Assembly (NCBI GenBank): GCA_048939765.1
Contig: JBHLPF010000008.1
Location: 23,760 to 87,759 of the forward strand
Reading direction: 5' to 3'
DNA from: Promethearchaeota archaeon
GTDB lineage: Archaea > Asgardarchaeota > Thorarchaeia > Thorarchaeales > Thorarchaeaceae
DNA length: 64,000 bases
Shown here: positions 52,830-64,000 of the stretch, in pieces
Numbering within the stretch: position 1 is the first letter of the stretch
Layout: the number at the start of each line of letters is the position of its first letter
Position numbers and translations under genes: made by a program
The notes under the pieces: model-generated
What the model saw: only the letters and a program-made list of their open reading frames with translations
Told to the model about the DNA's origin: nothing
Database searches by the model: none

Positions 52830-54026
52830 CTATGCGGTCGCCGATTTGGAACGTCTTCTCAAGAAGTTCCTCAGCTTGCTCTTGAAGTAGTAGAAACGAG
52901 AAAATTGGACACTTGCACCATCCTCCCAAGATTCCTCAGCTCCAATCCATGTCCCGTTTGGTTTAATCATCTTTGTTGCCAGTATTCCAATGATTAGGAC
53001 AGCGGGTATTGGAATTGGATAGGCGTAGTTGTCCCCAGATATTGGAATTGCAGCGGCCACAATATGATACATGAGCGGAGCAAGCATGCTTAGTATCCCT
53101 AGCTGAATAACTCGCTTCTGAGATGTCATACCCCGAAGAAACCTTAGGACATGAAAAGCAAAGACAATATGTAAAGCGCTCACTACGAGAACACTCACAA
53201 TATCAAGCACCTGATATACATCTAAGGATATTATCAACCAGTTATTCGGATTCCCTGGCAAGGGAATCCCAACTCCACCATCCAGTCCGAAGATGTATAG
53301 CGGTGATTCATAGCGAAAGGAGAATGAATTGAAGTCGTAGAGCCGGATAATCACCATAAATGGGATCAAAAATGTCATCAATCCCCATGCATAGCCTGCA
53401 AGTGAGTATCTGCTTAGCCAAGGAAATCTGGTTCTAGGGACTTTCCTTTCTTCTGGAAATCTTTCTTCGCGCCAAAGGAAGGCTTCTCGGGAGAATAGAG
53501 GCAGGAGAATAAGGATGATGATAGCCATCGTTCCCAAGTTCAAAAGACTCCTAGAAGGAATTGACTCAATGGCCCAGGGAAAGTTGAAGAGGGGATAGGC
53601 TTCAACAAACCAGAGTGTGAGAAGAATGGTGGCGAGAATGGCTGTCAGACCAAGCCTCAGAAGTGGTGCATTAGCTGGACGATTTCTCAACTTGCGATTT
53701 AGATAGATGGCTGGAAGCAATATGATAATCGCTGAGATTAGGGTGATGGGCTCGATGAACTGAGATTCTATGGTCAAGATGTCAAAACCCCCAGCATCCT
53801 GCCATATGGAATAATACATGAAGACAGAGTTTATTGAAGAATAGTAGTATGGCACAGCCGCCCTGAATTCCTCCCTATAGTGAATCTCAGATGGAACGAA
53901 TAGTAGAATACAGACTATAATCAGGAGCTTCAACCAGAAACCATATGAAATTGAGATCTTTTTCGGTAGATGTGACTCCGTTCCTTCGGGCAACAAGAGC
54001 TGTTCCTTCGTGCTGATGTTAGGCAT
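52830..54026 (-). CDS. Multi-pass membrane protein; paralogue of 25726-26973
   Basis: Hydrophobic segments and shared motifs. Confidence 0.7.
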   Translation of the reverse strand: MPNISTKEQLLLPEGTESHLPKKISISYGFWLKLLIIVCILLFVPSEIHYREEFRAAVPYYYSSINSVFMYYSIWQDAGGFDILTIESQFIEPITLISAIIILLPAIYLNRKLRNRPANAPLLRLGLTAILATILLTLWFVEAYPLFNFPWAIESIPSRSLLNLGTMAIIILILLPLFSREAFLWREERFPEERKVPRTRFPWLSRYSLAGYAWGLMTFLIPFMVIIRLYDFNSFSFRYESPLYIFGLDGGVGIPLPGNPNNWLIISLDVYQVLDIVSVLVVSALHIVFAFHVLRFLRGMTSQKRVIQLGILSMLAPLMYHIVAAAIPISGDNYAYPIPIPAVLIIGILATKMIKPNGTWIGAEESWEDGASVQFSRFYYFKSKLRNFLRRRSKSATA

Positions 54027-54118: not shown

Positions 54119-57100
54119 TCACATTACCTTTAGAGGATCCACCTCCAGCTCCTCTTCCTCTGACCACTCTTCACTCGCAGGAAGAACCTCAATACCGAGC
54201 ATATTCAATCTCGCCATAGTCTTCTGCAGAAGGTCTCTGCTATCGATGTCTGATAGGAGGTGTGCGTAATTGCAGAGAGTTCTTGTCAGTTCATGCTGAT
54301 GAGCCATTGGTGATTGTAATACTAGATCTTCTCCGATTTTGATTGCTTCCTGATAGAGATCCTTTGCATTCGACGTGTGGTCAGTCTGTTTGAGAAGGAT
54401 AGCGAGGTTGCTGAGTGTCATCATGACACTAGACTGGTACAATTCTGGCGACTTTTTGGCGAGTTCTCTACGCAGCTCGAGTGCCTCTCTAAATGCATCT
54501 TCGGCCTCCGAGATCTTGCCCGTTTCGAACAATAGTATACCAAGATTGTTGAGGGTAGTAGCGACTCGGTGCAGAAAGAGCTCAGGAGACTTCTGAGCAA
54601 GTTGTTTCCTGAGTTCCAAAGCCTCCTGAATGTATTTCTTCGCCTCCGATATTTCCCCAGTGTGTCTGAGAAGAACGGCGAAATTGTTGAGGATGGTGGC
54701 TAATAGGTCAGTCAGATAGACAGCCTCTGGAGCCTCGAAGGCAATCCCCCTTGCGATATCAAGTGATTCTTGATAGGCCTCTTGAGCCTCTGAGATTCTG
54801 CCAGTTTGTCTGAGAATTACAGCGAAATTGTTGAGATTCCAAGCCATCGGCATCAGATATACGCCTGGAGAGTTGGCGACAAGTTCTCTATGTATGCTGA
54901 GAGCCTCGCGACATGATCCTTCAGCCTCTGAGGCCAGATTAGTCCGCTTGAGTAGAACTGCATAATCACAGAGAGTTGAAGCTAGGAATGGCAAGAATAC
55001 ATCAGGAATCTCCTCAGCAAGTTTTCTTGACATCACTAGCGCCTCTCGATACTTTTCTTCAGCCTCGTCGAGTCTACCAATATTAGATAGGGTGAGTGCC
55101 AGCGTAATTAGTCCTATTAGCAGAGGTTCCCGCCACGCCTCAGGTTCCTTCTTGTCAAATTCGCTTGTCAGCTGGTTTGCTTCTCTGATCAGATCGATTG
55201 CTTCATACGGTCTGCCCTTCCTACTCATGAGTTCACCAAGGTCCTTGCAGTACATTGCCACACTCACCTCAAACTCTGGTCGTTCTTTGCTTATCGTTCT
55301 GGAGAATTCTAGGCCGGCTCGGAGATTCTCCTCCGCTTCTGAAACCTTGCCCACAAAGACTTGTACCATGCTGAGAAAGCGAAGTGAAGGTATAATGCCT
55401 CTTGCAGGAATGTAGGATGCTGTGGCTTTGGATCTCTCGAAAAGCTCATACGCTTCTCGAATGGCCATCTCGGCTTCTTCTAGTCTACTAACCTGAATCA
55501 GAAAGACACCAAGCCATAGAACGGCTCGTGCCATGTATTCTATCCGGAAACTCAGAGTCTTCTCGTCAAGTTTCTTGTAGATGTTGACAGACTTTTGGAG
55601 AGTATCTATTGCCTCCGAGGTTCTTTGCGTCCTATTAAGCAGGCCGCCATAGGCACGTAGTGTTTGTGCCTCATGCACCAATAGTTCATCTGGGATCTTC
55701 TCTCCGGACTCTCCGAATATCTCAATGGCAGTGAGAAGAGAATGTTCTCCGTCTGCCAATCTGTTCAACCATGTCAGAACGTCTCCTCTCAGTCCCTGCA
55801 CAATCGCGTAGCCTTCCCTTGTGGTGATTGCAACTGCATCCAGAAACACTAGAGTGTCTGAATAGGCTAAATTCCATAATAGGTCGAAGACAATGGAAGC
55901 GGCTCTTGCCATGGCCTCTTTTTCCGACGCAAGTGCTTGAACAGAAACCGCTAATCCAAGCAGTCTAAAATCCCCTTCTTCATTGCATTTCTTCTCAAGA
56001 AGATCTGACACCTCATCTACCAAATTGCCAAGATTATCGCCAAGCTCCGCACGAACCAAATCCTCTGCAAGGTCGTGTAGGACGAATGAACCATCGCTAC
56101 GCAGTTTTGTGAAGCTTAAACTTCTCAGACGATCCCAGCCATCCAAAGTCATCTCTGGAGCAATGACGCGCATGATACGTTCATCGAAATAAGGAAGTAT
56201 ACCAGCACGGTTAATCAGACTCTGCAGTCCCTTAGCTTGGCTGAATAGTCTTCTCCATACCCTCAATCGAACCTCTGCTAGCGTATCAGCTCGAAGACCC
56301 TCTATGTCTGAAATAGAAACCTCGCTTGTGTTAATCATGTCACAGATTGCATCGATGACGAAAGGATTTCCACCACTGACACTCACAATCCGTTCTTGGA
56401 GCTGTTTATCAGTGGTGTCTTGTAGCTCAAGCATCTCGAAGCAACTATCCTTGTCCAGCTCCAAGAGTTCAGATTCCTCAACATTGATCAGTTTGCTAAC
56501 AGAAGCTGCCCGTCTACTAGCTAACACGCCAACGCAATTTGCTAGGTTGCAAAGGAAGATGGTCCAGAGCTGTGTTTCGTTTATCTTTGTTCTTTGATAC
56601 TTCCATTGAGCTTTGGTATCATCAACATACTCAAAGTGATCCAGTAGGAAGAGGATTGGAGCATTGGAATCACTTCGGTTATTGATATCCTCCAGAAAAG
56701 CCTCTAAATACAAGAATTCAGCACGACTTGGATCTTTCCAGAGGATATTGAGAAGTTGTTCGATGTGGTTCTTGCCAAGCGTTTCTTGGAGCCACTTTCC
56801 AACCGTACTATACTTACCCTTCAGTTTGGGGGCGACCTGGGAACTAACCGCATTTATCGCACTCCCGATACTTGCAAGAGACCCTATGAAAGGGATTGCC
56901 ATGACAACTTCCTTTGCCCATTGACGCCCTTCTTCTTTGACTGGTTCCACACCTTCAACGAAACGTTGGCGAATCTGCCAAAGGATGTCAAACCTATCGA
57001 GTTTGACTCCCAGCTGGACCGCTCCTTTAGCGAGAATGTTCAGGCGTTGATAGAACTCGGTGTATTGTTCGCAATCCAGACGAATGGTCTTCTCATGTGT

Positions 57101-57265
57101 GTTGACCCAGTGATTTAGGAGTGATGACTTCCCGATACCACCAATCCCTTTTAGGTGGAGCACGACACTCTTCTTCTTGCATCTCTCAAGAGCCTTGTTC
57201 ATCCATTCGATATGCTCCTCTCTGTCCACGAATACGTTATCGGATGTTTCGTAGTGCTTGTACAC
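54119..57265 (-). CDS. STAND-like P-loop NTPase + TPR protein
   Basis: GIGGIGKS, LFLLDHFE, SGGNP, LHDL, then TLNNLG-type TPR repeats. Confidence 0.85.
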   Translation of the reverse strand: MYKHYETSDNVFVDREEHIEWMNKALERCKKKSVVLHLKGIGGIGKSSLLNHWVNTHEKTIRLDCEQYTEFYQRLNILAKGAVQLGVKLDRFDILWQIRQRFVEGVEPVKEEGRQWAKEVVMAIPFIGSLASIGSAINAVSSQVAPKLKGKYSTVGKWLQETLGKNHIEQLLNILWKDPSRAEFLYLEAFLEDINNRSDSNAPILFLLDHFEYVDDTKAQWKYQRTKINETQLWTIFLCNLANCVGVLASRRAASVSKLINVEESELLELDKDSCFEMLELQDTTDKQLQERIVSVSGGNPFVIDAICDMINTSEVSISDIEGLRADTLAEVRLRVWRRLFSQAKGLQSLINRAGILPYFDERIMRVIAPEMTLDGWDRLRSLSFTKLRSDGSFVLHDLAEDLVRAELGDNLGNLVDEVSDLLEKKCNEEGDFRLLGLAVSVQALASEKEAMARAASIVFDLLWNLAYSDTLVFLDAVAITTREGYAIVQGLRGDVLTWLNRLADGEHSLLTAIEIFGESGEKIPDELLVHEAQTLRAYGGLLNRTQRTSEAIDTLQKSVNIYKKLDEKTLSFRIEYMARAVLWLGVFLIQVSRLEEAEMAIREAYELFERSKATASYIPARGIIPSLRFLSMVQVFVGKVSEAEENLRAGLEFSRTISKERPEFEVSVAMYCKDLGELMSRKGRPYEAIDLIREANQLTSEFDKKEPEAWREPLLIGLITLALTLSNIGRLDEAEEKYREALVMSRKLAEEIPDVFLPFLASTLCDYAVLLKRTNLASEAEGSCREALSIHRELVANSPGVYLMPMAWNLNNFAVILRQTGRISEAQEAYQESLDIARGIAFEAPEAVYLTDLLATILNNFAVLLRHTGEISEAKKYIQEALELRKQLAQKSPELFLHRVATTLNNLGILLFETGKISEAEDAFREALELRRELAKKSPELYQSSVMMTLSNLAILLKQTDHTSNAKDLYQEAIKIGEDLVLQSPMAHQHELTRTLCNYAHLLSDIDSRDLLQKTMARLNMLGIEVLPASEEWSEEEELEVDPLKVM

Positions 57266-57331
57266 ACTCCTAACCTCACACGCAATGGACTGAATAAGCT
57301 AGGGTATCAAATAAGCTCGATGGTGCTTTGG

Positions 57332-60300
57332 CTAGTACCCCTGTAGATACTCCATATTCTCTGACCACGTTTCTTCGGTAGCAGGGTCCCTAATCCCTAA
57401 TTCTCTGAGCTTGGCATCAACTCTCTCAACACCAGACGAATCCTCAATGGTCGAATAGAGAACGCGTAGATTGCCTAGAATCAAAATTAGTTGCGATCGG
57501 TGAACTCTCGGTGCAGCTTGAGCAAAGCTCTCAATGATGCTGAGAGCTTCAGTGTGGGCCTTCTCGGAATCATCAGCTTTGCCAGTTCTTCTGTAGTATA
57601 TGCCTAGATTGTTGAGGGCAGATGCAACTCTCGGAAGGAAAAACTTCTCAGCTTTCCCAACATAGTCTCTGCGAATCTTTAGTGCTTCCTTGAATTGGGA
57701 CTCGGCCTCTGACATTCGATTCGTTTCACTCAGAAGAACACCAGTATTCATCAAAGTGGTAGCGATATGCGGAAGAAACATCTCAGGAGATAGAGATGCT
57801 CTCTCGTTTAGCATAGCGCTAGCTTCATTGAACACCATCTCGGCGTCTTCCAGCTGACTAGTCCTCAAGTAGAAGGCTCCCAGGTTATTGGCTACAATTC
57901 CATAAACCTCTGCCAATGAAACGGCCTCCGGATACTTGAGAGAAATATCTCTAGCATTGTTATACGCCTCTTGAAGCGATTCCAATGCCTTGGTGGGCTT
58001 CCCTAGATGCGAATAGATAACGCCGATGTTGCTTTGCACGGCTGCCAACTTTTCTGTATATGCTTCAGGGTAAGTTTCCGCAAGTTCTACAAGCATACTT
58101 AGTGATTCATGGATTGCGGATTCTGCCTCATGCATTCTTTCTGATAATGCCAAAAAAACTGCAAAGTTGCGTAGTGAATTAGATAGAATTCCAGAAATTG
58201 ATGTCTTTTCTTCATACAGCTTTCTAAATGCTGGAATTATCTCATTGAAGATCTTCTCTGCTTTCTTGTATTGCCCGTTCTTCATATATGGGACCGGCAA
58301 TAGGCGAATATTCATGATTATCGTACTATCATGCTCAGAATCCTTCCAGGCAAGACCTTCAATCACATTGAACCGCTTCTTTCCAGCTTCTAATTCATCT
58401 TCATATCTATGCTGAAGGCTCAAAGCCATTGCGAGTCGGTCAAGTGCTAAATCCTCTACGACTTTTTCTTCACAGGCCTCAAGAATCTCTATTAGTAACT
58501 TCTCTGCTTCAAGATACTTTCCTGACATAAGGAGAACTTGGGCAAGAAAGCTTTGCGAATAGTAAACAAATGATTTCCCTTCTTGCGTATTGGAAGTATA
58601 GTGAATATCATTTGAGTGGAGTTCAGCCAGTTCTATAGCCCTTCTGATGGAATCCTCGGCTTCCTTCAAACGGTACAATGACAGAAGCAGGTTTCCCATA
58701 TCATTGTACGTGCCGTGAATCCAATGTTCCTTCACGTATCGTTTCTTGTCATCAGCTAGATTGAGATTGTTGAGAATCTCCAGAGCCTTTTGAAAAGATT
58801 CCTCTGATTTGTACATCTGGTCGGCGTTCTGGTAGAAACGAGCATGAAACCAATGCATCATTCCAAGATGCAGTGCGCTTTCAGGAGGCCCCCTTTGAGC
58901 AAGCTCCTTAGCCATTCCTAGAGCCTTTCGAATCTCATCTTCTGCTTCAGCATGTCTATATATACAAGAGTAGACATAACCTATCCACGAGATTTTTTTG
59001 ATCAAAACGACTTCTGATGTAGTTTCGATGGCCCTCAGGAATTTCATTGTATCCGATACATCCCATTGAAAAAGAAGACTGTTAACGGTGTTATCGATTC
59101 TTATCTCAGTATCAATCTCATCAGCAAGAGCATAAACTGACATAGCTAAACCTAGAAGTTCGTGATCAGCTTCCGCCCATCCGGCGTCTTCTAGAAACTT
59201 GCCTACCTGAAACGCCAGGCTACTCAGTTTCTCTCCGAGTTCAGCTATTACGAGATCTTCAGCAAGTTCGTGAAGGACCCAGGTCTTGTCATCTCGCTCC
59301 CTGACGAAACTCAATCGCTTGAGTCGATCCCAGATATCTGGAGTCATTTCTGGAGCAACTATCCCCATAATCCTATCATCGAAATGCGGAACTATTCCTG
59401 CACGATTAATGAAACTAGACAACCCTGCAGCATGACTGAATAGACGCCTCCAAACCTTCAATCGAACCTCTGCGAGGTTGTCAGCTCGGAGACTTTCGAT
59501 GTCAGATACTGACACATCGCTGGTGTTTATCATATCACAGATAGCATCAATCACGAAGGGATTTCCTCCGCTGACGCTCACAATTCTTTCCTGAAGCCTC
59601 TCATCAGTGACATCTTGAAACTCGAGCATTTCGATGCAGCTTTCTCTATTCAACTCCAAAAGCTCGGTTTCCTCAACTTCTACGGGCTTAACTTTTGCCG
59701 CTGACTTTCTGCTTGCTAATACACCTACGCAATTTGAGAGGTTAGAGAGGAATATGGTCCAGAGCTCTGATTCATTAATTCTGCTCTTCTTATACTTCCA
59801 TAAGGTATTCTCATCATCCACATGCTCAAAATGATCAAAGAGGAAAAGCAGCGGACTACTTGAATTATCTCTAGTATTGATATCCTCCAAAAATGCAGAA
59901 AGGTACAAGAATTCTGCTCGACGAGGTTCTTTCCAAAGAATCTCTAGAAGCATTTCAACGTGATTCTGGCCAAGTTGTTCCTGAAGCCATTTCCCCACTG
60001 TGCCGTATTTCCCTTTCAGCTTCGGAGTGACCTTTGAGCCGACTGCAGTTATTGCGCTGCCTATGGATGCTAAAGAACCTATGAATGGAATAGCCATAAC
60101 CACTTCTTTTGCCCAGGCTCTTCCTTCTTCTCTAACAGGTTCAACTCCTTCAACAAAACGTTGACGTATCTGCCAAAGGATGTCGAATCTTTGCAGCTTG
60201 ACTCCTTGGAGCACTGCTCCTTTTGCCAGAATATTCAAACGCTGAAAGAAGTCTGAATACTGATAACAATCCAATCGAATTGACTTTTCATGAGTGTTGA

Positions 60301-60460
60301 TCCAATAATTCAGCAAGGATGATTTTCCAATTCCACCAATGCCTTTCAGGTGGAGGACCACACTCTCCTTCATGCATCTCGCAAGGGCATCATTCATCCA
60401 TTCGATATGTTCCTCTCTGTCCACGAATACATCCTCGGATGACTCGTAGTGTTTATACAC
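57332..60460 (-). CDS. STAND-like P-loop NTPase + TPR protein
   Basis: GIGGIGKS, LFLFDHFE, SGGNP, LHEL, TPR repeats. Confidence 0.85.
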   Translation of the reverse strand: MYKHYESSEDVFVDREEHIEWMNDALARCMKESVVLHLKGIGGIGKSSLLNYWINTHEKSIRLDCYQYSDFFQRLNILAKGAVLQGVKLQRFDILWQIRQRFVEGVEPVREEGRAWAKEVVMAIPFIGSLASIGSAITAVGSKVTPKLKGKYGTVGKWLQEQLGQNHVEMLLEILWKEPRRAEFLYLSAFLEDINTRDNSSSPLLFLFDHFEHVDDENTLWKYKKSRINESELWTIFLSNLSNCVGVLASRKSAAKVKPVEVEETELLELNRESCIEMLEFQDVTDERLQERIVSVSGGNPFVIDAICDMINTSDVSVSDIESLRADNLAEVRLKVWRRLFSHAAGLSSFINRAGIVPHFDDRIMGIVAPEMTPDIWDRLKRLSFVRERDDKTWVLHELAEDLVIAELGEKLSSLAFQVGKFLEDAGWAEADHELLGLAMSVYALADEIDTEIRIDNTVNSLLFQWDVSDTMKFLRAIETTSEVVLIKKISWIGYVYSCIYRHAEAEDEIRKALGMAKELAQRGPPESALHLGMMHWFHARFYQNADQMYKSEESFQKALEILNNLNLADDKKRYVKEHWIHGTYNDMGNLLLSLYRLKEAEDSIRRAIELAELHSNDIHYTSNTQEGKSFVYYSQSFLAQVLLMSGKYLEAEKLLIEILEACEEKVVEDLALDRLAMALSLQHRYEDELEAGKKRFNVIEGLAWKDSEHDSTIIMNIRLLPVPYMKNGQYKKAEKIFNEIIPAFRKLYEEKTSISGILSNSLRNFAVFLALSERMHEAESAIHESLSMLVELAETYPEAYTEKLAAVQSNIGVIYSHLGKPTKALESLQEAYNNARDISLKYPEAVSLAEVYGIVANNLGAFYLRTSQLEDAEMVFNEASAMLNERASLSPEMFLPHIATTLMNTGVLLSETNRMSEAESQFKEALKIRRDYVGKAEKFFLPRVASALNNLGIYYRRTGKADDSEKAHTEALSIIESFAQAAPRVHRSQLILILGNLRVLYSTIEDSSGVERVDAKLRELGIRDPATEETWSENMEYLQGY

Positions 60461-60547
60461 ACTCCTGACCTCTCACACGCAATGTGCTGCATTAGCTGAG
60501 CTTTCTCATAAGCTAGTCGGTCGCTTTTCTTAAGAAGGGATGAATCA

Positions 60548-63500
60548 TTAGAATGCATCCGCCTCTGTATCCTCTTCTTCCATCCACGTTTCCTGTCCAG
60601 CAATAATGCTTGACCCGAGCCCTTCCAGTTTCATTTTGATTGATTCAGCTTTCTCTGCTTCTCCTTGTTGCTCATAGAAAAGCAACAAGTTCGATAGAAT
60701 GATTGTGACATATCGCTGATAGACTGAAGGCACTCTTGCTGCCAAATCCTCCAGGATGCCGAGGGCTTCTTCATAGCATTTCTCAGCTCTCGAGATTTCA
60801 CCAGACAGTTTGTATATATTGCCAAGATTGCTAAGAACGAATCCTAGACGACCATTGTGCATCTCTGGCGATTTCTTGGCTAGTTCTCGTCGTATCTCTA
60901 ATCCTTTCAAAGATACTTCTTGAGCCTCAGGGAGCTTATTTGCAGAAGACAGCAGAACTCCAAGATTATTGAGGGTTGTAGCCATGCTGGTGAGAAAGAC
61001 ACCCGGAGTCTTCTCAGCTAGTTCTTGTCTGACTTCTAGTGCCTCACACAGAGCCTCTTCTGCTTCATCATTCTCATTCATTTTCCTGTGCAAGACACCT
61101 AGATTGTTCAATACAATTCCCAAAAGATGAGAATGGAATATATTCTCAGGATAGTTCTGAGCCAGCTCTCTGCTAATGGCGAGTGCTCTGGAATAGAATT
61201 TGCGAGCTTTAGATTCATTACCCGTTTCTCGGAGAAGGATTGCGTAGTTATTCAATGCCCAAGCAACGTACTTCTCATAAAGATCAGTCCAATCTTTTGA
61301 GAGATACTCATAGTTTTCTAATGCTTCTTCATAATGTTCTTCTGCCTTGGGATACTGACTCATTTCGTAATATAGCACTCCAAAGTCATTGAGAACCATC
61401 GAGAGCCATACTAGATTCAATTCAGGCTCATCGACTACGGTGGCTCTAGCTCTCTCAAGCGCCTCCCCGTAATGAGTTTCAGCCCCAGTGTAATCTCCAA
61501 GGAGTCTCAATACAAGTCCATAATGCCTGAGATAAGTTGCATGCAAGTTTTGGACAAGATGAACCCCCTCTTCACGTTTCGACCACTTCCGTACCAAATC
61601 TAAACCTCTTCGAAACATATGCTGAGCTTCAAAGGGTCTCGAGGTCAGCCTTAGAATGTCTCCTAGGTCGATAAGACTGCTAATCTCATTATATTCTTCA
61701 GTCTTTGTTTCAAGTGTATCCCTATAACAAGCTTCAGCCTCATCCATTCTTCCTAAATGCAAATTGACGTATCCAAGCCTATTCAGATGAGCTACCCGTT
61801 CACGAGTGACTATTCCTGGTTCCATCCCATGCTCCAATAGGTCCAGAGCTTGCTGCAAGAGGTCTGCTGCCTTATTCAATCGATGCAAATGCACCAAGAG
61901 TGAACTATAATGGAAATTTAGAAGAAGCACATAGGGGTTCTTCCTCACAATTGCTGGGTCTATATCTCTGGCAATCTTAAGAGCCCCCTCGTAGACTGCT
62001 TCGGCTTCAGCTGGCCTTCTAAGTTCCTTTAGTAAGTAGCCGTATATTCTGAAGCACATTGCCAGATAGATTCTGTTGCTTTCCGGATCTGATTCTGCCA
62101 GGTCCTCTAGAACATCAATCGCTTCTTTTAACAAATGTTCTGCTTCAGCAACTCTGTCTAAGCAAGCAAGATGATGTGCTTTGATCACGGAGATTATGGT
62201 CCTTTCTCTCAGACCATGAAAATTGATTGAGTCAAGCAACTCAACAGCGGAACGGAATTGACCCCTCCAGCTTTGAGTGTCGGTGATGTTAAGAACCATT
62301 TCTAGGGCAGATCCCGGGGAGTATAGACCTTGTACAGAAATGGAAAGCCCCAGAAGTTTCATGTCATCTTGCTCTTTTGCAGCCTTCTCTAGGAGTTCGG
62401 CGACTTCCTCCGTTTGTATGGGAAAACGATCACCAAGTTCTGCAACCACGAGGTCTCTTGCAAGGTCGTGCATCACATAAGTTTCATCACCTCTGTCCTT
62501 CATGAAACTAAGACTTACCATTCGTGTCCATTGATCAATATTCATGGTTGGAGCAATGGTATTCATCACGTTTCGGTAAAAATATGGGAGCAGGCCAGCA
62601 CGATTCACTAGTTCTTGAAGATCCCGAACCTCACTGAAGAGTTTCCTCCACGTCTTCAAACGGACTTCATCAAGGGTGTCTGAACGCAGACTCTCAACAG
62701 AGGCAAGTGATAACGAACTCGATTCAGCCATGTCGCATAGTGTTCCAATAACAAATGGATTGCCCCCACTCACGCTGACTATTTTTTCTTGAAGATCAGC
62801 ATCTCTCACTCCTCTCAAATCTAGAAGCTCAATGCAGCTCTCTCTCTCAAGTTCGGTTAGTTCTGAATCCTCAATCTTGTGTTCTGGAGGCTCAACTACC
62901 GCCTTTCTACTTGCCATGACTCCGACACAATTGGACAGTGATGACAAGAAGACACACCATAGCTCAGTTTCAGTTATCTGATTCCCGGCATAACGCCAGT
63001 GAGCAGCTTCAGAATCAACATATTCGAAGTGGTCAAAAAGAAAGAGCAGGGGGGAGTCTGGATTCTTCCTGCTGTTCAGATCCTCCAGCAGTGCATCCAT
63101 GAATAGAAACTCCGCATGATGAGGATCCTTCCATAAAATCTCAAGAAGTCGTTCAACATGATTCTTACCGAGAACTTCCTGCAGCCACTTCCCCAAGCTG
63201 CTGTATTTTCCCGTCAGCTTGGGAGTGACTTTTGTACCCACTGCTTTGATAGCGCTACCTATGCTTGCTAGCGACCCAATGAATGGGACTAACGTGACCA
63301 ATTCCTTGGCCCATTCGCGCCCTTCTTCTCTGACTGGTTCAACACCCTCCACGAATCTCTGTCGAATCTGCCAAAGAACATCAAATCTTGGGAGTCCTAT
63401 ACCAAGGAGCACTGCACCCTTTGCCAGTATGTTCAAGCGAGCATAGAACTCTGAGTACTGCTGACAGTCCAACCGAATTGTGGAATCAATATTATTCGTC

Positions 63501-63658
63501 CAGTAATCTAGTAGCGAGCTCTTTCCAATGCCTCCAATGCCGCGTAGGTGAAGCACAACGGGTTTGTCTTTGCAACGCTTGAGCGCACCATCCATCCATT
63601 CAAGATACTCTTCTCTATCTACAAACACCTGTTCAGATGGCTCGAAGTGCTTGTACAC
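60548..63658 (-). CDS. STAND-like P-loop NTPase + TPR protein
   Basis: GIGGIGKS, LFLFDHFE, SGGNP, MHDL, TPR repeats. Confidence 0.85.
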   Translation of the reverse strand: MYKHFEPSEQVFVDREEYLEWMDGALKRCKDKPVVLHLRGIGGIGKSSLLDYWTNNIDSTIRLDCQQYSEFYARLNILAKGAVLLGIGLPRFDVLWQIRQRFVEGVEPVREEGREWAKELVTLVPFIGSLASIGSAIKAVGTKVTPKLTGKYSSLGKWLQEVLGKNHVERLLEILWKDPHHAEFLFMDALLEDLNSRKNPDSPLLFLFDHFEYVDSEAAHWRYAGNQITETELWCVFLSSLSNCVGVMASRKAVVEPPEHKIEDSELTELERESCIELLDLRGVRDADLQEKIVSVSGGNPFVIGTLCDMAESSSLSLASVESLRSDTLDEVRLKTWRKLFSEVRDLQELVNRAGLLPYFYRNVMNTIAPTMNIDQWTRMVSLSFMKDRGDETYVMHDLARDLVVAELGDRFPIQTEEVAELLEKAAKEQDDMKLLGLSISVQGLYSPGSALEMVLNITDTQSWRGQFRSAVELLDSINFHGLRERTIISVIKAHHLACLDRVAEAEHLLKEAIDVLEDLAESDPESNRIYLAMCFRIYGYLLKELRRPAEAEAVYEGALKIARDIDPAIVRKNPYVLLLNFHYSSLLVHLHRLNKAADLLQQALDLLEHGMEPGIVTRERVAHLNRLGYVNLHLGRMDEAEACYRDTLETKTEEYNEISSLIDLGDILRLTSRPFEAQHMFRRGLDLVRKWSKREEGVHLVQNLHATYLRHYGLVLRLLGDYTGAETHYGEALERARATVVDEPELNLVWLSMVLNDFGVLYYEMSQYPKAEEHYEEALENYEYLSKDWTDLYEKYVAWALNNYAILLRETGNESKARKFYSRALAISRELAQNYPENIFHSHLLGIVLNNLGVLHRKMNENDEAEEALCEALEVRQELAEKTPGVFLTSMATTLNNLGVLLSSANKLPEAQEVSLKGLEIRRELAKKSPEMHNGRLGFVLSNLGNIYKLSGEISRAEKCYEEALGILEDLAARVPSVYQRYVTIILSNLLLFYEQQGEAEKAESIKMKLEGLGSSIIAGQETWMEEEDTEADAF

Positions 63659-63791
63659 TCTCCTGACTCCGTGTCACGCGATGACACTGCAGTGGCTGAG
63701 GTCTCTCATAAGCTAGTCGGTCTCTATCTTAATAGAACAAACCCAAGAATTTAACTATGGTTAATGGCGTATTTGGAGCGGAAGTCTACAC

Positions 63792-64000
63792 ATGAGTGAG
63801 CATGTTGAAAACACATTGGATTGCATGGGGGATGAACAACAGAGTTACCGATACATTGAGCTTGCTTCATACATCCTTTTCGGAATAGGCCCACTGGTTG
63901 GAAATGCAGTCCTTACATTGCTGGGTCCGATAGCTGCTCAGTTTCTGGTTGATCCAACAGCTATCCTTGTGGCAATCCCAGCTTTCATGTTTCCATTTGC
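63792..64000 (+). CDS. Partial membrane protein, probably an MFS transporter (runs off the window)
   Basis: Manual translation ..ILFGIGPLVGNAVLTLLGPIAAQF..AIPAFMFPF resembles MFS TM1-2; open to the window end. Confidence 0.55.
   Translation, partial: MSEHVENTLDCMGDEQQSYRYIELASYILFGIGPLVGNAVLTLLGPIAAQFLVDPTAILVAIPAFMFPF

Follow-up and report, generated by a model that had tools for sequence, protein, structure and literature searches.

A tandem array of three STAND ATPase-TPR proteins with exchangeable sensor halves and no recognised effector domain in a Thorarchaeales genome

The window analysed here is a stretch of 64,000 nt from a Promethearchaeota archaeon (order Thorarchaeales; GenBank assembly GCA_048939765.1, contig JBHLPF010000008.1, positions 23,760 to 87,759 of the forward strand). 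Near its right end lies an array of three large genes, here called A, B, and C, whose products are predicted to be STAND proteins (signal transduction ATPases having numerous domains) that end in tetratricopeptide repeats (TPRs). A first-pass annotation, made from the sequence alone, had described three co-oriented paralogues of ~1040 aa, and we found intact open reading frames (ORFs) of 1048, 1042, and 1036 aa, all on the minus strand. The spacers are 66 nt (A/B) and 87 nt (B/C). The genes and the motifs of gene A, with the nucleotide-binding oligomerisation domain (NOD) at its N-terminal end, are as follows (window coordinates).

54119..57265, minus strand: gene A (P0001, 1048 aa), ORF with start codon GTG
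55931-57265, minus strand: NOD of gene A (aa 1-445), followed by ~14 TPRs and the C-terminal tail at 54119-55930
57332..60460, minus strand: gene B (P0002, 1042 aa), architecture as in gene A
60548..63658, minus strand: gene C (P0003, 1036 aa), architecture as in gene A
57125..57148, minus strand: Walker A motif GIGGIGKS, gene A aa 40-47
56630..56656, minus strand: Walker B strand ILFLLDHFE, gene A aa 204-212, placed by motif and model
56363..56377, minus strand: GxP motif SGGNP in the helical domain, gene A aa 297-301, placed by motif and model
56069..56080, minus strand: MHD-like motif LHDL in the winged-helix domain, gene A aa 396-399, His397 invariant

The Walker A, Walker B, SGGNP, and MHD-like motifs and the TPRs behind them, all named in the first-pass annotation, could be located in the sequence. 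The MHD-like motif reads LHDL in gene A, LHEL in gene B, and MHDL in gene C. GIGGIGKS, hhhhDHFE, and an ASR sensor-1 motif (R251 invariant) are found in genes A, B, and C and in 25 to 55 relatives, and P301 and H397 are invariant in the family alignment. The catalytic and switch motifs are intact and under purifying selection. The paralogues share 62 to 74% identity over aa 1-445 and ~25 to 30% over the TPR half, and the similarity among the three is far beyond chance. The N-terminal extension before the NTPase fold, which begins at ~aa 12-16 (FVDRE, first helix), is 11 to 15 aa long. At the C-terminal end there is no more than a tail of 26 aa. The absence of a fused effector, as annotated earlier, was borne out; the NTPase start had been placed ~30 residues into the protein, which is too late.

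The TPR half is readily recognised by Pfam: TPR_12 and TPR_10 matched genes A, B, and C with E values of 1e-23 to 1e-49, as had been anticipated. NB-ARC and AAA_16, the other models named in the first-pass annotation, stayed under the cut-offs. NB-ARC (PF00931) scored 20.3, 17.5, and 14.0 bits against a gathering cut-off of 23.5 and aligned to the P-loop region alone; AAA_16 reached 29.9 (cut-off 32.6) and ATPase_2 reached 24 (cut-off 33.2). No Pfam NTPase model reached its cut-off for the three proteins, and a sequence search against PDB chains gave no significant match. AlphaFold2 (AF2) models were made of the NOD (aa 1-445, 25-sequence alignment) and of the full-length protein (55 sequences). 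The NOD model has a predicted local distance difference test score (pLDDT) of 83 and consists of a nucleotide-binding domain (NBD), a helical domain (HD), and a winged-helix domain (WHD). Foldseek searches against PDB matched it to CED-4, Apaf-1, NRC2, PH0952, and MalT at E values of 2e-7 to 6e-6. An independent comparison by VIA-align gave Z scores of 15.8 for MalT (332 aa aligned), 15.6 for PH0952, 15.1 for NRC2, and 12.6 for Apaf-1, and all STAND matches outranked ORC/Cdc6 (~12) and other AAA+ proteins. These structural matches cover model residues ~10-445, that is, NBD, HD, and WHD. The full-length model (pLDDT 87.6) shows 28 TPR-type helices over aa 448-1022, or ~14 TPRs. It was concluded that genes A, B, and C encode STAND ATPase-TPR proteins as far as the predicted fold goes, with a NOD that is an outlier at the sequence level. 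The first-pass assignment to STAND ATPase-TPR proteins is upheld by the match of the predicted fold to MalT, PH0952, NRC2, and Apaf-1, and the HD and WHD, on which the annotation had made this assignment depend, are both in the model. No leucine-rich repeat (LRR) sensor, the strict criterion for a nucleotide-binding leucine-rich repeat receptor (NLR), was found by Pfam or in the full-length model; the sensor is all-helical TPR. Pfam and NCBIfam scans found no helix-turn-helix or other DNA-binding effector of the MalT/PH0952 type, and there was no Pfam match to KAP_NTPase or Gly-zipper.

The most conserved and most unusual element of the protein is an insert between Walker A and Walker B, which the first-pass motif list left out. 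In PH0952 three helices, called the initiator-specific motif (ISM), ISMb, and H2, occupy this position with ~59 residues, and their tip contacts the arm and the TPR sensor at rest (PMC6468293). The ISM/ISMb/H2 tip between strands S2 and S3 of Apaf-1 likewise contacts arm and sensor (PMC6468293). In our model strand 2 (aa 60-64) is separated from the Walker B strand (aa 204-209) by seven helices. With seven helices against three in PH0952, the segment is therefore read as an ISM tip enlarged by ~85 aa.

56666..57070, minus strand: insert between strand 2 and the Walker B strand, gene A aa 66-200, modelled as an enlarged ISM/ISMb/H2 tip
56843..56911, minus strand: hydrophobic Gly/Ser/Ala-rich stretch, gene A aa 119-141 (AIPFIGSLASIGSAI), Kyte-Doolittle hydropathy over 19 residues (KD19) of 1.7, the protein maximum

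Column entropy among 55 family members is 0.5 to 1.0 bit in the insert, 1.2 to 1.6 in the rest of the NOD, and 2 to 3 in the TPR half, so that the insert is the most conserved segment of the protein. It is kept in relatives of 25 to 35% identity. The hydrophobic stretch of ~22 aa is the hydropathy maximum in all three paralogues (KD19 1.6 to 1.8), and its region is the least confidently modelled part of the NOD (pLDDT 58 to 69). In the most distant NOD relatives (P0217 and P0220, aa ~125-170) a Gly/Ala-rich run of 35 to 40 aa, resembling a glycine zipper, is found at the same position. An ESM Atlas look-up of the insert returned a top score of 0.75, to a bacterial cluster, and was uninformative. 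On a conservative reading, the insert would be a regulatory and oligomerisation surface that fits interchangeable sensors.

The NOD tree resolves orthologues of gene A and gene C in other genomes, and the TPR halves do not track the NODs. P0006 has a NOD 86% identical to that of gene A, its nearest, with a TPR half 30% identical to that of A and 60% identical to that of C. P0107 has the TPR half nearest to that of gene A (61%) with a NOD of 62% identity. In sliding windows the identity switches sharply at aa 435-450, on a conserved LLGLAxSV motif.

55916..55963, minus strand: NOD/TPR junction, gene A aa 435-450, with the LLGLAxSV motif; recombination breakpoint between the modules

We conclude that whole TPR sensor halves are exchanged between paralogues at a fixed junction. 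Assembly chimeras are an unlikely source of the discordance because it is shown by many independent metagenome-assembled genomes (MAGs) and by two closed genomes. Nei-Gojobori dN/dS is 0.05 to 0.12 in the NOD, 0.01 to 0.07 in the insert, and 0.18 to 0.28 in the TPR half. Recent gene conversion and hyper-similar repeats were considered and rejected, the paralogue NOD DNA being 62 to 74% identical and the internal 138-nt TPR units 60 to 82%.

The window contig belongs to a 3.37-Mb MAG that is 88.5% complete. The array ends 342 nt from the contig end (window 64000), where 77 nt are shared with another contig. In genome G000 the ends of contigs C69 and C23, and likewise those of C18 and C47, are joined by exact overlaps of 77 nt. 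The C18-C47 join restores a full gene and with it a second three-copy array, in which one copy had been cut by the contig end, and the genome holds at least six family copies (two arrays of three). The assembly breaks fall in or beside the conserved NOD sequence of the family. In a phmmer search against 1.84 billion representative proteins we found 146 relatives at E <1e-3 and 74 at E <1e-30. All 146 align from their own residue ~1-25, hence none of them carries an N-terminal effector. Matches are found in 14 of 16 genomes of the same genus, with 1 to 10 in each, and a closed 2.58-Mb genome has at least eight scattered copies. When the phylum was sampled evenly (251 genomes), 31 genomes proved to have the family. 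They represent 3 of the 28 taxonomic families in the sample, and for one of the three the evidence is a single weak match; many of the sampled complete genomes that belong to the same taxonomic family as the window gave no copy. The copy number ranges from 0 to 10, and stop codons are present in several remnants. Wherever a homologue or locus is named, it comes from a MAG of Candidatus Thorarchaeota, 'Hermodarchaeota' or Promethearchaeota, and no description of this STAND-TPR family was found in the literature. It was concluded that the family is a real, undescribed, Thorarchaeota-restricted variant of the STAND-TPR switch, and that its members are accessory genes that undergo birth and death, rather than housekeeping genes. 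A single-copy housekeeping gene is excluded because the distribution is patchy, with 0 to 10 copies and decayed remnants; conserved single-copy homologues, the alternative raised in the first-pass annotation, do not describe what is seen in these genomes. The expanded array proposed there held up in the copy-number survey: the family is multi-copy and variable, with a diversified sensor half.

Both termini are short and conserved, with the variable sensor between them.

54122..54220, minus strand: C-terminal tail, gene A aa 1016-1048, motif LG[IV]..P..E.W.EEEE

This tail motif type ends ~60% of the long family members and leaves no trace in relatives below 35% NOD identity. The tail is modelled as coil, yet its pLDDT stays >90 up to aa 1040. 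Because a coil is still modelled with such high confidence, the model implies that the tail may dock in cis. TPR clamps classically bind acidic peptides at protein C-termini. The N-terminus carries a conserved peptide, MY(K/E)H(Y/F)E, which a six-frame search of the genome found only at the six family genes. The first-pass mention of conserved termini was right in substance and applies chiefly to the acidic-Trp C-terminal tail. A pairing through amyloid-signalling N-termini (BASS/HET-s type) was considered and rejected, the motif MY[KE]H[YF]E being confined to the family and no neighbour gene being conserved.

Comparison with known systems places the family nearest to PH0952 of Pyrococcus horikoshii (PDB 6mfv) and E. 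coli MalT (8bob), its best structural matches (Z 15.6 to 15.8, ~300 to 330 aa aligned). NBD-HD-WHD, arm-like helices, and a TPR sensor are common to all three, as are the GxP motif and the WHD histidine, and by analogy the NBD tip (ISM/ISMb/H2) of the family is expected to touch arm and sensor at rest. The family is without a DNA-binding effector, in contrast to the ArsR-like domain at the N-terminus of PH0952 (PMC6468293) and the LuxR-type domain at the C-terminus of MalT. The S2-S3 segment is 145 aa in the family, ~86 longer than the ~59 of PH0952 and with the hydrophobic stretch in it; there are ~14 TPRs instead of six, and the family is multi-copy with sensor swapping. Apaf-1, CED-4, and the plant NB-ARC NLRs (AP-ATPase clade) have the same fold as the family (Foldseek E 2e-7 to 1e-5) and the same succession of motifs, from Walker A and Walker B through the sensor-1 Arg and GxP to MHD; also common to both is the occurrence in gene clusters in which the NOD is conserved and the sensors are diversified. 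Those proteins have a CARD, coiled-coil (CC) or TIR effector and a WD40 or LRR sensor, while the family has TPRs and scores only 14 to 20 bits with NB-ARC. The antiviral STANDs Avs1-7 and their relatives (Gao et al. 2022; bioRxiv 10.64898/2026.01.04.697583) likewise combine a STAND NTPase with a large TPR-like C-terminal sensor and show modular sensor exchange between clades; they are tripartite, with an N-terminal effector, and lie in defence islands, neither of which is true of the family. The NB-ARC/NACHT-TPR proteins of fungi and filamentous bacteria (PMC4986451; bioRxiv 10.1101/2020.01.06.895854) resemble the family in paralogue expansion, module re-assortment, TPR_10/TPR_12-type repeats, and the frequent lack of an effector. 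They often bear N-terminal amyloid motifs paired with an adjacent effector, whereas the N-terminus of the family is 11 to 15 aa with a family-only motif, and the internal TPRs of the family are not hyper-similar (60 to 82% DNA identity). Tmn/YobI and KAP proteins (PMC13001434) have, like the family, a hydrophobic element between Walker A and Walker B and a C-terminal alpha-solenoid. Tmn has two and KAP four transmembrane helices there (PMC13001434); the family has one borderline stretch of ~22 aa in a STAND fold with WHD, and there is no sequence relationship.

We lean, by somewhat more than even chances, towards reading these proteins as ligand-gated STAND oligomerisation switches with exchangeable sensors, a multi-copy family restricted to Thorarchaeota and without an effector domain. 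They probably have a role in non-self recognition. The immune role is what we infer; the architecture and the NLR-like evolution are well supported. At rest each paralogue would be a closed ADP-bound monomer, with the enlarged ISM tip, and probably also the acidic-Trp tail, held against the arm and the TPRs. A cognate ligand in the TPR superhelix would release the autoinhibition, and the ATP-bound NODs would then oligomerise. Varied sensors on a near-constant NOD would provide a repertoire of specificities, for which variable non-self (viral or foreign) proteins would be the simplest target. The best candidate for the output is the insert, ultra-conserved and specific to the family, which would lie at the hub of a STAND ring; alternatively, the insert may recruit an unlinked partner.

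Several results weigh against a defensive role. Searches of Pfam, NCBIfam, and PADLOC turned up no effector domain of nuclease, protease, SIR2, TIR or transmembrane type. In PADLOC only generic TPR models matched genes A to C, and no Avs model did. Among 149 neighbours (within 5 kb, ~19 contexts) PADLOC matches of methyltransferase (MTase) or mad type numbered 2 or 3; the background rate of defence genes is 1.5% (bioRxiv 10.64898/2026.01.04.697583), and the rate among the neighbours is about the chance level. A census of 589 STAND clades judges defence by effector content and defence context (bioRxiv 10.64898/2026.01.04.697583), and the family would not count as defence-associated because it fails on both counts. 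The neighbour genes are ordinary and form no defence-island context: a multi-pass membrane protein, a flavoprotein operon led by PadR, a major facilitator superfamily (MFS) transporter, AsnC-type regulators, an amidase, and pyridoxal phosphate (PLP) enzymes. The average dN/dS of the TPR half is below 0.3, and dS is saturated in most pairs, which precludes inference of positive selection. No relatives were found among IMG/VR viral contigs. The first-pass proposal of an antiviral pattern-recognition array accordingly stands for the expansion and is not supported for the antiviral part, given PADLOC matches to TPR models only, no enrichment of defence genes, and no relatives on viral contigs. The separate effector through which the array had been suggested to signal did not turn up either, since no effector gene is conserved beside the arrays.

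The strongest rival, which we still consider unlikely, holds that these proteins are non-immune hubs similar to MalT, PH0952, and NPHP3 that sense endogenous metabolites or proteins and scaffold a cellular process, each paralogue being specialised for its own internal cue and the insert and the tail serving autoinhibition and assembly only. The nearest folds are indeed those of MalT and PH0952, both STANDs of the transcription type, in PH0952 the ISM tip acts as an autoinhibition surface (PMC6468293), the genomic context is ordinary without enrichment of defence genes, and purifying selection acts across the whole protein. About two thirds of the prokaryotic STAND clades are not defence-associated (bioRxiv 10.64898/2026.01.04.697583). 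However, no output domain, DNA-binding or other, is present. The family is patchy (3 of the 28 families sampled, and no copy found in many of the complete genomes that share its taxonomic family), and its 0 to 10 copies, pseudogene remnants, and sensor swapping fit accessory recognition genes of fast turnover better than core regulators. That the array consists of sensor-only NLRs signalling in trans, as in sensor/helper NLR pairs or adaptor-mediated STAND systems, seems improbable to us. The oligomer would then recruit an unlinked effector or helper through the acidic-Trp tail or the MY(K/E)H(Y/F)E peptide. Such recruitment would suit variable sensors flanked by conserved short termini, a tail of the kind that TPR clamps bind, and the family-wide absence of a fused effector. 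Yet in 22 contexts no gene regularly accompanies the arrays, the genome has the N-terminal motif in the family genes only, the TPR-nitrilase gene described below is >200 kb from any copy in closed genomes, and the confident tail in the monomer model suggests cis binding.

Very improbable, in our judgement, is a self-contained NLR acting on membranes, in which the hydrophobic helix of the insert is the effector and the ring bundles 6 to 12 copies of it into or onto the membrane, by a logic analogous to the plant resistosome funnel or Tmn/YobI. The stretch is the hydropathy maximum (KD19 1.6 to 1.8) within the most conserved segment, yet has a pLDDT of only 58 to 69; distant relatives have their glycine-zipper-like G/A-rich run in the same place; a P-loop domain with transmembrane helices in it has a precedent in Tmn (PMC13001434); and no other effector was found. 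On the other side, this is one stretch of ~22 aa with borderline hydropathy, and a single span cannot cross the membrane from within a folded domain. The stretch may instead be the core of a helical insert or the surface that contacts arm and sensor, and Pfam gave no KAP or Gly-zipper match. The broader proposition that the output is built into the ATPase, with the insert and its hydrophobic Gly/Ser/Ala helix becoming exposed at the ring's hub upon activation and acting on the membrane or as the sole signalling surface, is a similarly long shot.

Intracellular immunity has STAND/NLR switches at its core in animals, plants, fungi, and bacteria. Among prokaryotes, the Asgard archaea are the nearest kin of eukaryotes. 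The genetic behaviour of the family is that of an NLR cluster (arrays, birth and death of copies, sensor swaps at a fixed junction), and yet its members are effector-less with a conserved insert in the NBD. If the family is immune, it would show how a minimal sensor-only STAND signals and would bring Asgard archaea into the range of NLR-style repertoire evolution. If it has no immune role, it is a counter-example in which NLR-like population genetics alone is no sign of defence. If the insert is a built-in effector, an NLR-type switch with the effector inside the NOD would exist in an archaeal lineage related to eukaryotes. The proteins are a compact target for biochemistry, as single polypeptides with good predicted models.

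By ORF clustering across 22 contexts we found no conserved partner gene, and synteny is limited to close relatives. The MFS transporter, AsnC-type regulator, amidase, and membrane protein were considered as partners and rejected, as the eight scattered copies of the closed genome have nothing in common beside them. The membrane protein (398 aa, multi-pass, 52830-54026, minus strand) lies directly downstream of the array and belongs to no Pfam family. It was also set aside as a partner, its synteny being limited to near relatives. A 556-aa paralogue of it with a NosD/beta-helix segment is found on the other side of the array (L057:3637-5307, minus strand), again with synteny in close relatives only. 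The MFS transporter gene is divergent from gene C and runs across the contig junction, from 63792-64000 (plus strand) into L057:1-1095. On contig C23, ~8 kb upstream of gene C, an 893-aa fusion of TPR_12 with a C-terminal carbon-nitrogen hydrolase (nitrilase) is encoded at L057:7855-10536 (plus strand). This TPR-nitrilase gene is present in 1 to 2 copies across Thor genomes. As a trans effector it was rejected: it adjoins a family copy in one distant genome, but in two closed genomes every copy is >200 kb away from it.

The regions upstream of the three genes are alike.

57266..57320, minus strand: gene A 5' region, AGCTTAT promoter-like boxes at 57292-57320 and an AGGAG Shine-Dalgarno-like site at 57267-57271
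60461..60519, minus strand: gene B 5' region, box CGACTAGCTTATG at 60507-60519 and AGGAG directly before the GTG start
63659..63719, minus strand: gene C 5' region, box CGACTAGCTTATG at 63707-63719 and AGGAG directly before the GTG start

The box CGA[CT][GT]A[GA]CTTATG (a close variant in gene A) is found ~48 nt upstream of the start in six of the six genome copies, and a genome-wide search found exact matches to the full box only at family copies. Each duplicated unit therefore carries its own promoter-like region. The GTG starts are upheld by the AGGAG site just upstream and by the conservation of the first 35 residues across the family. Rfam and tRNA scans of 50-64 kb found no RNA family and no tRNA. 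As called in the public record, gene A (P0005, 1013 aa) begins 35 codons too late and skips window positions 57161-57265. The start codon is GTG in all three window genes and ATG in all three of the second array. Towards the C-terminal end of gene A, the TPRs (54366-54835) are 138-nt (46-aa) DNA repeats that are mutually 62 to 82% identical.

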